Source: a phage. From it: a stretch of 39,129 nt of DNA. The position numbers and the translations under genes were made by a program. Location of the stretch: the sequence record PX309103.1; one strand, 5' to 3'. The stretch's first letter is position 1. Every line of letters begins with the position of its first letter. This document shows positions 20,409 to 22,433 of this stretch, piece after piece. Under the pieces are notes generated by a model that saw only the letters and a list, made by a program, of their open reading frames with translations, did not search any database and was not told the DNA's origin.

Positions 20409-20410
20409 GA

Positions 20411-20433
20411 CTAAACTATCACTATAGGGAGAC
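20411..20433 (+). promoter_or_regulatory. Phage RNAP promoter (phi10-like)
   Basis: TAAACTATCACTATAGGGAGACC, followed by a GGGAGACC...GGUUCCC 5' stem-loop. Confidence 0.9.
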
Positions 20434-20533: not shown

Positions 20534-21577
20534 ATGGCAAACGTTCCGGGTCAGAAAGTAGGTACAGACCAAGGCAAAGGCAAATCTGGTTCCGACGCTC
20601 TGGCGTTGTTCCTGAAGGTATTTGCTGGTGAAGTACTGACCGCATTCACTCGTCGCTCTGTAACTGCTGACAAGCATATTGTCCGTACCATTCAGAACGG
20701 TAAGTCTGCTCAGTTCCCGGTCATGGGTCGCACCTCTGGTGTGTATCTGGCTCCTGGTGAGCGACTGTCCGATAAGCGTAAAAGTATCAAACATACCGAG
20801 AAAATTATTACCATTGATGGTCTGCTGACTGCCGATGTGATGATTTTCGACATTGAAGACGCGATGAACCACTACGACGTGGCTGGCGAGTATTCCAACC
20901 AGTTGGGCGAAGCTCTGGCTATCGCTGCCGATGGTGCTGTTCTGGCTGAAATGGCCACCCTGTGTAACCTCCCGGCTGCATCCAACGAGAACATTGCTGG
21001 TCTGGGCACTGCGTCCGTACTTGAAGTTGGTAAGGAAGCTGACCTCAACACCCCGGCTAAACTGGGCGAAGCAATCATCGGTCAACTGACCATTGCTCGT
21101 GCGAAGCTGACCTCCAACTACGTTCCTGCTGGCGACCGTTACTTCTACACCACGCCGGACAACTACTCTGCAATCCTCGCGGCTCTGATGCCGAACGCTG
21201 CTAACTATGCTGCGCTGATTGACCCAGAGACTGGTAACATCCGTAACGTAATGGGCTTCGTGGTTGTTGAAGTTCCACACTTGACTCAGGGTGGTGCTGG
21301 TGAAACTCGTGGTGACGATGGTATCACTATTGCGACTGGTCAGAAGCACGCCTTCCCAGCTACTGCTACTGGTAATGTTAAAGTTGCTCTGAACAACGTT
21401 GTGGGCCTGTTCTCTCACCGTTCTGCTGTGGGTACTGTGAAGCTGCGCGACTTGGCGCTGGAACGTGACCGTGACGTCGATGCTCAGGGCGACCTGATTG
21501 TTGGTAAATACGCTATGGGTCACGGCGGTCTGCGTCCTGAAGCGGCTGGCGCACTGGTTTTCAGCCCAGCGGCGTAA
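20534..21577 (+). CDS. Major capsid protein 10A
   Basis: 347 aa; strong T7 gp10A similarity (LALFLKVF, KSAQFPV, AILAALMPNAANYAALIDPE, HRSAVGTVKLRDLALER). Confidence 0.97.
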   Translation: MANVPGQKVGTDQGKGKSGSDALALFLKVFAGEVLTAFTRRSVTADKHIVRTIQNGKSAQFPVMGRTSGVYLAPGERLSDKRKSIKHTEKIITIDGLLTADVMIFDIEDAMNHYDVAGEYSNQLGEALAIAADGAVLAEMATLCNLPAASNENIAGLGTASVLEVGKEADLNTPAKLGEAIIGQLTIARAKLTSNYVPAGDRYFYTTPDNYSAILAALMPNAANYAALIDPETGNIRNVMGFVVVEVPHLTQGGAGETRGDDGITIATGQKHAFPATATGNVKVALNNVVGLFSHRSAVGTVKLRDLALERDRDVDAQGDLIVGKYAMGHGGLRPEAAGALVFSPAA

Positions 21578-21708
21578 GCACCTTTAGCCAACCTAACGTC
21601 GCTACAGTAGCGGCTGCACCTGAAGAGGAGACTCTAACTCCTCAGCAGAAAGCTGCGCGTACTCGTGCTGCGAACAGGGCCGCTAAACTGGCTGAGTCCA
21701 ACAACTAA
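20534..21708 (+). CDS. Minor capsid protein 10B, predicted -1 frameshift product
   Basis: Slippery heptamer G GTT TTC at 21556-21562, 4 codons before the 10A stop; the -1 frame stays open to TAA at 21706-21708. Confidence 0.65.
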
Positions 21709-21711
21709 TTG

Positions 21712-21750
21712 AAACCCCTTGGGTGCCTTCGGGTGCTTGAGGGGTTTTTG
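21712..21750 (+). terminator. Intrinsic terminator after capsid gene (T-phi-like)
   Basis: GC-rich hairpin CCCCUUGGGUGCC-UUCG-GGUGCUUGAGGGG followed by UUUUU. Confidence 0.85.
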
Positions 21751-21768
21751 CTTAAAGTGAGGATGATT

Positions 21769-21858
21769 ATGTTTTACTTACTTACAGCCTTGGGACTATT
21801 TGTTAGTTTCTGGGCGATTATATTATTAACCGGACCATGCAGTCCTTACGACAGATAG
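21769..21858 (+). CDS. Small hydrophobic ORF (29 aa) between terminator and gene 11
   Basis: MFYLLTALGLFVSFWAIILLTGPCSPYDR; GAGG 6 nt upstream. Confidence 0.3.
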   Translation: MFYLLTALGLFVSFWAIILLTGPCSPYDR

Positions 21859-21866
21859 GAGGGAGT

Positions 21867-22433
21867 ATGGCTCAATACATTCCACTGAATGCTAACGATG
21901 ACTTAGACGCTATCAACGATATGCTAGCTGCTATCGGTGAACCGGCAGTCCTACAGCTTGACGAGGGGAACGCTGACGTCTCGAACGCCCAACGTATCCT
22001 GCATCGTGTCAATCGTCAGGTCCAAGCTAAAGGCTGGAACTTTAACATCAATGAAGCTGCTGTCCTGACACCTGATGTCCAAGACAATAGGATTCGATTC
22101 TTGCCGTCATACCTTCGTGTAATGACCGCTGGGGCCACCAGCTACTACAGCAACATGGGTGGATACCTGTACGACCTGTCCACTCAGTCGACCACTTTCA
22201 CCGACCCTATCACGGTAGAGCTTGTGGAGATGAAGCCATTCTCCGAGATGCCTGTGGTCTTCAGGGACTACATCGTCACTAAAGCTAGCCGTGAGTTCAA
22301 CGCTAAGTTCTTCGGTAGCCCAGAGTCTGAACTGTACCTTCGTGAGCAGGAAGCAGATCTCTATCAGCAGGTCATGGAATACGAGATGGATACTGGTCGC
22401 TACAACATGATGTCTGACATCGGGAGAGACTAA
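21867..22433 (+). CDS. Tail tubular protein A (gp11 family)
   Basis: T7 gp11 similarity (AINDMLAAIGEP, GWNFNINEA, YIVTKASREFNAKFFG); start ATG 21867 with GGAGGGAG RBS. Confidence 0.93.
   Translation: MAQYIPLNANDDLDAINDMLAAIGEPAVLQLDEGNADVSNAQRILHRVNRQVQAKGWNFNINEAAVLTPDVQDNRIRFLPSYLRVMTAGATSYYSNMGGYLYDLSTQSTTFTDPITVELVEMKPFSEMPVVFRDYIVTKASREFNAKFFGSPESELYLREQEADLYQQVMEYEMDTGRYNMMSDIGRD

Follow-up and report, generated by a model that had tools for sequence, protein, structure and literature searches.

A probable −1 frameshift site of the T7 10A/10B type at the capsid gene's end in a K1F-like phage

The window considered here is the whole 39,129 nt stretch of phage DNA in sequence record PX309103.1. 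Its capsid region is matched by 335 phage records, and its nucleotide identity to the capsid genes of K1F-like coliphages (Kayfunavirus, Studiervirinae) is 94-98%. By these matches, the window is a K1F-like relative of T7 that belongs to the genus Kayfunavirus. The product of its capsid gene matches the Pfam family Gp10A-like (PF21703, E 1e-105) over residues 60-342, and shows 71% amino-acid identity to T7 10A. The following features at and around the end of this gene are referred to throughout.

20410-20432, + strand: phi10-type promoter-like sequence actaaactatcactatagggaga, 5′ of gene 10 (fits the K1F promoter consensus)
20534-21577, + strand: gene 10A, major capsid protein, 347 amino acids, C-terminus ...GALVFSPAA followed by the stop (ORF and Pfam match)
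21541-21577, + strand: overlap zone, the sole stretch where a −1 shift enters the open −1 frame (TGA at 21538-21540 upstream)
21556-21562, + strand: slippery heptamer G GTT TTC, zero frame CTG GTT TTC (direct reading; identical in T7 and K1F)
21562-21708, + strand: predicted 10B-specific −1 region, 48 codons (QPSGV...AESNN) plus TAA (translation, homology, selection)
21634-21684, + strand: most conserved extension block LTPQQKAARTRAANRAA, predicted alpha-helix (alignment, codon variation, model)
21711-21749, + strand: Tphi-type intrinsic terminator, hairpin plus U-run (fold, conservation)

The sequence upstream of gene 10 matches the K1F promoter consensus that the record of phage ASO2B quotes for the homologous position, and we infer from this fit that it serves as a promoter for the phage RNA polymerase. 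At the other end of the gene, the stem of the Tphi hairpin (21711-21748) comprises 17 bp, with a dG of −25.2 kcal/mol and a z score of −3.85, and its 5′ arm contains the sequence CCCC (21715-21718). This terminator is kept in 12 relatives, whose consensus fold carries compensatory changes at two of its pairs.

Between the terminator and gene 11 lies a small hydrophobic ORF, MIMFYLLTALGLFVSFWAIILLTGPCSPYDR (21764-21858, + strand), which the ORF list stretches upstream to a TTG at 21709 and which is annotated in phage Pipis as a hypothetical single-transmembrane protein. K1F lacks this ORF, and its gene 11 ribosome-binding site lies directly 3′ of the terminator. The mechanical start of the gene 11 ORF in the window is ATG 21837 (+ strand), a codon that overlaps the 3′ end of the small transmembrane ORF. 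Annotations of homologues start at the equivalent of ATG 21867 (MAQYIPLN...).

Reading onward from the heptamer in the zero frame gives AGC CCA GCG GCG and then TAA (21575-21577), which agrees with the original prediction that the site lies four codons ahead of the 10A stop. That prediction had also described a −1 frame open for about 50 codons up to a TAA immediately before the terminator. Translation of 21556-21708 indeed yields 50 sense codons (GFQPSGVSTFSQPNVATVAAAPEEETLTPQQKAARTRAANRAAKLAESNN) ending in TAA at 21706-21708, and the terminator hairpin begins 2 nt past this stop. Because the TGA at 21538-21540 closes the −1 frame, a productive shift is confined to an 11-codon stretch ahead of the 10A stop, in which the −1 frame opens with SGWRTGFQ... 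and G GTT TTC is the sole slippery motif.

The statistics of this single sequence do not set the site apart. GGTTTTC occurs twice in the window versus 3.9 times expected, which is no enrichment, and the second copy, at 1208, is in the wrong register (GGT TTT C). Likewise, the open −1 frame is not significant alone, given that 19% of mononucleotide shuffles of the 48 codons are free of stops. Since neither result is significant, we set single-sequence statistics aside as evidence, and the significance of the site rests on comparison with relatives. Both counts would nonetheless suit a reading in which the heptamer and the open −1 frame are a coincidence or an inactive relic, with 10A the only product and 21578-21708 an untranslated 3′ region.

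Comparison of the extension itself with its homologues argues against that reading. An alignment with the T7 10B tail and junction gives 61% identity, and an alignment of the extensions from the window, T7, Kvp1-like phages and others contains 19 invariant columns, including those of LTPxQxAARTRAAN. Over the 17-codon conserved block, the window and T7 retain only ~65% nucleotide identity, with 13 of 17 amino acids the same and 9 codons that differ only synonymously. Among 24 distinct sequences of this block, variation occurs at all 17 third positions, at 7 of the 17 first positions and at 5 of the 17 second positions. Across the same 24 sequences, pN/pS is 0.16 in the −1 frame versus 3.8 and 2.1 in the other frames, an apparent constraint that is inflated because the loci were partly chosen by peptide motif. 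Judged from this pattern of codon variation, purifying selection acts on the extension at the level of the protein, in the −1 frame. Substitutions of the protein type, in a peptide that is kept from K1F-like phages to T7 at ~65% nucleotide identity, speak against a coincidence or relic.

Within the K1F-like group the extension varies little, and its codon positions differ less sharply (pi of 0.0175 for positions 1 and 2 versus 0.038 for position 3). As a possible sign of further constraint at the RNA level, the third-position diversity of 0.038 compares with 0.115 in 10A, but it falls inside the 0.019-0.094 spanned by 90-nt windows along this mosaic gene. A Pfam scan of the window extension returned no family. 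In a single-sequence AlphaFold model, residues 1-26 of the extension have no regular structure and residues 27-47 form a helix (pLDDT about 85-92), and this predicted helix coincides with the conserved block.

A second line of evidence concerns the association between the heptamer and the extension, which was examined in two sets of loci. One set comprises 44 loci recovered via the extension peptide, and here the extension follows GGTTTTC and occupies the −1 frame with respect to 10A, with the exceptions of one CGTTTTC and two disrupted variants. The other comprises 78 loci picked by 10A homology alone. Each of the 31 distinct capsid homologues with the T-run site keeps GTT TTY unchanged, and in 30 of these 31 GTTTTY sequences the −1 extension is 39 codons or longer. 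Where the sequence carries neither GTTTTY nor an A AAG site, an extension of that length is present in 3 of 28 cases, and in 3 more the frame merely runs into gene 11. The co-occurrence of GTTTTY with a −1 extension supports the earlier description of the site as conserved.

In relatives that lack an extension, the valine codon of the heptamer (before TTC) is GTC, GTA or GTG. Only in the sequences with neither slip motif is this codon free to vary synonymously. A position that is synonymous for 10A is thus fixed precisely in those sequences that have a −1 extension, which again is difficult to reconcile with coincidence or a relic. The link between GTT and an extension spans at least four unrelated modules: the T7-type helix, a module of ~87 amino acids without a Pfam match, Big_2, and Big_2 with a long tail. 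The Big_2 domain is present in the extensions of loci L029 and L039 (Pfam).

Several of these loci deserve description in their own right. A group of Kayfunavirus loci with a 10A 93-96% identical to that of the window (L011, L015-L024, L075 and L076) has the same G GTT TTC followed by an unrelated −1 extension of ~87 amino acids, which includes ...TTFKALSTEGPTLETYSSTVGTSLKVDFPELSDVTDWSLL...GYDGSPVRSFNVSFTN and has no Pfam match. From these sequences, extension modules appear to have been swapped behind a fixed slip site. In locus L010, a deletion shortens the 87-amino-acid type of extension, so that the −1 frame now continues into the small transmembrane ORF (...TTPEWFFLLKVRMIMFYLLTALGLFVSFWAIILLTGPCSPYDR followed by the stop), an ORF that in the window lies 3′ of the terminator. 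In two metagenomic T7-like contigs (L039 and L054), where the heptamer reads G GTT TTT A, at least 399 codons of the −1 frame are free of stops. Their extension begins with a Big_2 domain (E 9e-12), and the region after it, with GDSL and DGTHSN motifs, resembles an SGNH hydrolase by eye but gave no Pfam hit at E < 0.1. The extension may be a capsid-displayed enzyme reached via frameshifting.

Other loci carry broken versions of the T7-type extension. A 1-nt deletion (TAAGCACC to TAGCACC) moves it to the +1 frame in L012 and L091, and a change of GAG to TAG cuts it short in L123. These disruptions imply either that 10B can be lost or that the assemblies are erroneous. If these are natural 10B-null phages, they would fit with a dispensable 10B in T7; the alternative is assembly error.

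The −1 programmed ribosomal frameshift of T7 genes 10A and 10B was reportedly described by Condron, Atkins and Gesteland in 1991, and the parallel with this system that the original prediction had drawn is borne out in several respects. The T7 heptamer is the identical G GTT TTC, located at the homologous Val-Phe codons (T7 reads gtg gtt ttc aaa gtg gag taa), and the RefSeq record NC_001604 (T7p44/T7p45) gives 10B as a two-piece join. The T7 extension is homologous, with the invariant LTPxQxAARTRAAN helix, and its −1 stop also lies just ahead of a Tphi terminator that has CCCC in its 5′ arm. The two phages differ in that the T7 extension has 53 residues versus 48 in the window, with a first half that is unrelated or unalignable, and in that the site and terminator of T7 are more than 200 nt apart versus ~150 nt in the window. 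In addition, T7 carries a GGGGG run past the site that the window lacks.

Closer relatives share more of these features. The g10b of K1F is orthologous and shares the heptamer, and its extension has 98% nucleotide identity to that of the window; the two phages show only point differences here, such as GCG GAG TAA in K1F in place of GCG GCG TAA, and a D in the K1F helix where the window has A. Frameshifting in the −1 direction has been reported for K1F, where a fusion of gfp to the g10b end gave stable fluorescent virions (PMC6277420). The orthologous 10B is entered as a −1 frameshift join in Kayfunavirus phage CR44b, and for EcoDS1, of the same genus, the record mentions a slippery sequence along with a 'region of similarity to gp10B'. 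The Kluyvera phage Kvp1 has the heptamer in the context G GTT TTC A and an extension of the same family (the Kvp1-like locus L117 reads ...ELTPQQKAARTRAANKARKEAE), but its linker is different and its capsid is only about 75% identical. Peptides specific to 10B have been detected for Kvp1 by mass spectrometry (PMC2579914).

T3 and phiYeO3-12 offer a more distant comparison. These phages also shift by −1 near the end of gene 10 to make a minor capsid protein with a C-terminal extension, which stops ahead of Tphi, but their shift site is C CCA AAG, at a lysine codon (PMC5009743), and their extension is an unrelated Ig-like Big_2 domain of ~85 amino acids. No A AAG was found in the 10A tail of the window, and its extension has no Pfam match to a Big_2 or Ig-like domain; a helix is predicted instead. 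Nor does the site resemble a cassette of the dnaX or insertion-sequence type. The heptamer is not of the A AAA AAG kind, no Shine-Dalgarno-like element was seen by eye upstream of it, and neither a stable local stem-loop of the sort that such cassettes have 5-9 nt downstream (z +0.33 to +0.37) nor an Rfam family was found.

Taken with the display of a −1-frame GFP fusion on K1F virions, the selection on the peptide and the fixation of the GTT codon make it very improbable that the site is a coincidence or an inactive relic. Besides the unremarkable statistics of the single sequence, such a reading can draw on the broken extension in two relatives, on the majority of GenBank records for the genus that annotate nothing in the extension, and on the failure to find a significant local RNA stimulator.

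The sequence and its comparisons point instead, with high confidence, to a gene 10 that yields both 10A and a minor 10B from one mRNA via −1 ribosomal slippage on G GUU UUC. Under this mechanism, most ribosomes would read CTG GTT TTC AGC CCA GCG GCG TAA and release the 347-amino-acid 10A protein. A minority would move one nucleotide back on the heptamer, where the A-site tRNA-Phe would exchange UUC for UUU and the P-site tRNA-Val would leave GUU and re-pair imperfectly with GGU. The G_GU of T7 gene 10 is listed in a review as an accepted departure from X_XX (PMC5009743). The shifted ribosomes would then read CAG CCC AGC..., add 48 residues and terminate at the TAA ahead of Tphi, giving a minor capsid protein 10B predicted to have 391 amino acids (343 + 48). 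Its extension would consist of a poorly ordered linker followed by the conserved basic, alanine-rich helix, and should be exposed on the capsid surface. The predicted tryptic peptide across the junction, YAMGHGGLRPEAAGALVFQPSGVSTFSQPNVATVAAAPEEETLTPQQK, has 47 residues, and the helix yields very short tryptic pieces.

Further properties of the proposed shift can be carried over from T7, Kvp1 and K1F. By analogy with the experiments on these phages, the shift would be ribosomal and roughly 10% efficient, and 10B would be built into virions and is probably dispensable. In T7, 10B makes up ~10% (PMC1635266) and is not essential (PMC5592923), and the T7 basis for efficiency, virion incorporation and dispensability is given by these two reports together with PMC8067280.

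The same two products could arise if the phage RNA polymerase slipped on the run of four T, deleting one U from some mRNAs. The run does lie exactly at the shift point, and sequence alone does not separate an RNA-level event from one at the level of the ribosome. Appreciable polymerase slippage is, however, known on homopolymer runs far longer than four T. Moreover, conservation covers the full heptamer, with the G that precedes GTT, and holds it in one codon register. Such dependence on register would be expected if tRNAs re-pair, but not if the polymerase slips. Given also that the field treats T7 gene 10 as a case of ribosomal frameshifting (PMC5009743), transcriptional slippage is a highly unlikely source of the extended protein. 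Least plausible of all, and with no support found, are read-through of the stop codon, a shift at another point of the overlap, or a small gene with its own start: beyond the 10A stop the zero frame runs into TAG in no more than 11 codons and the +1 frame stays open for just 3, the 11-codon overlap has no other slippery motif, and no ORF initiated by ATG, GTG or TTG was found in the −1 extension frame.

If the ribosome slips at the heptamer, as we prefer, an RNA structure downstream could serve as a stimulator. The 70-78 nt 3′ of the window heptamer fold no better than shuffled sequences (z +0.33 to +0.37), and a classical local stimulator is thus not evident in the window. The same test on 70 nt gives z −2.15 for T7 versus +0.33 for the window, and z −2.2 to −3.9 for L024, L027, L015, L029 and L112, which carry other modules. 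In these other-module lineages, hairpins begin 5-25 nt 3′ of the heptamer. The K1F-like sequences with a T7-type extension have no such significant local folding, and stimulatory structures may, from these folds, travel together with the extension module. An Rfam scan of 21400-21900 gave no match, and in the consensus fold of 12 diverse relatives compensatory changes were found only in the terminator.

One candidate in the window is an 8-bp stem formed by AGCGGCGU (21568-21575) and ACGUCGCU (21596-21603), 5 nt past the heptamer. It appears only in a 211-nt fold and in the minimum-energy fold of L041, and K1F-like sequences differ in its 5′ arm by two changes that keep the pairing and by one that breaks it, the last in K1F itself, a mix that speaks neither for nor against the stem.

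Two long-range pairings were considered and rejected. The consensus fold of the 12 relatives pairs the heptamer with CAGAARGC (Q-K-A codons, ~100 nt downstream), probably by chance: both sides are fixed by coding, and we estimate that roughly 40% of 150-nt stretches would contain a chance complement of a 7-mer once G-U pairs are allowed. Moreover, a heptamer that is base-paired cannot stimulate while the ribosome decodes it. A pairing between CCCC and GGGG was discarded as well, the GGGGG of T7 being absent from the window and not kept in close relatives of T7.

For T7 gene 10, the CCCC of the terminator has been implicated in frameshift stimulation (PMC5009743). In the relatives compared here, CCCC and the hairpin are equally conserved where there is no frameshift (terminator-derived sequence being present in the −1 translations), and a search for a conserved partner of the CCCC or the terminator near the shift site found none. 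We offer only as a tentative and rather unlikely proposal that the K1F-like shift dispenses with local downstream structure and relies on the bare heptamer together with a long-range effect of Tphi, only ~150 nt away. A still weaker variant would make the 8-bp stem (21568-21575 with 21596-21603) the true stimulator. If the proposal of a Tphi effect is true, the K1F-like layout, being compact, would offer a convenient natural model of the long-range stimulator, as yet unexplained, that acts on frameshifting in T7 gene 10.

By homology, the feature described here is the orthologue of T7 10A/10B and of K1F g10b. It is already known in the genus and adds no new biology. About 80 deposited Kayfunavirus genomes carry the extension at 95% nucleotide identity or more, nearly all without a 10B annotation; several of these records call the 347-amino-acid ORF "minor capsid protein", and the RefSeq record of K1F also leaves the extension unannotated. 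The value of the finding is mainly one of annotation, in that entering 10B as a join at 21561/21562 gives the true set of virion proteins. The join also marks an exposed C-terminus for capsid display, which has already been exploited in T7 and K1F.
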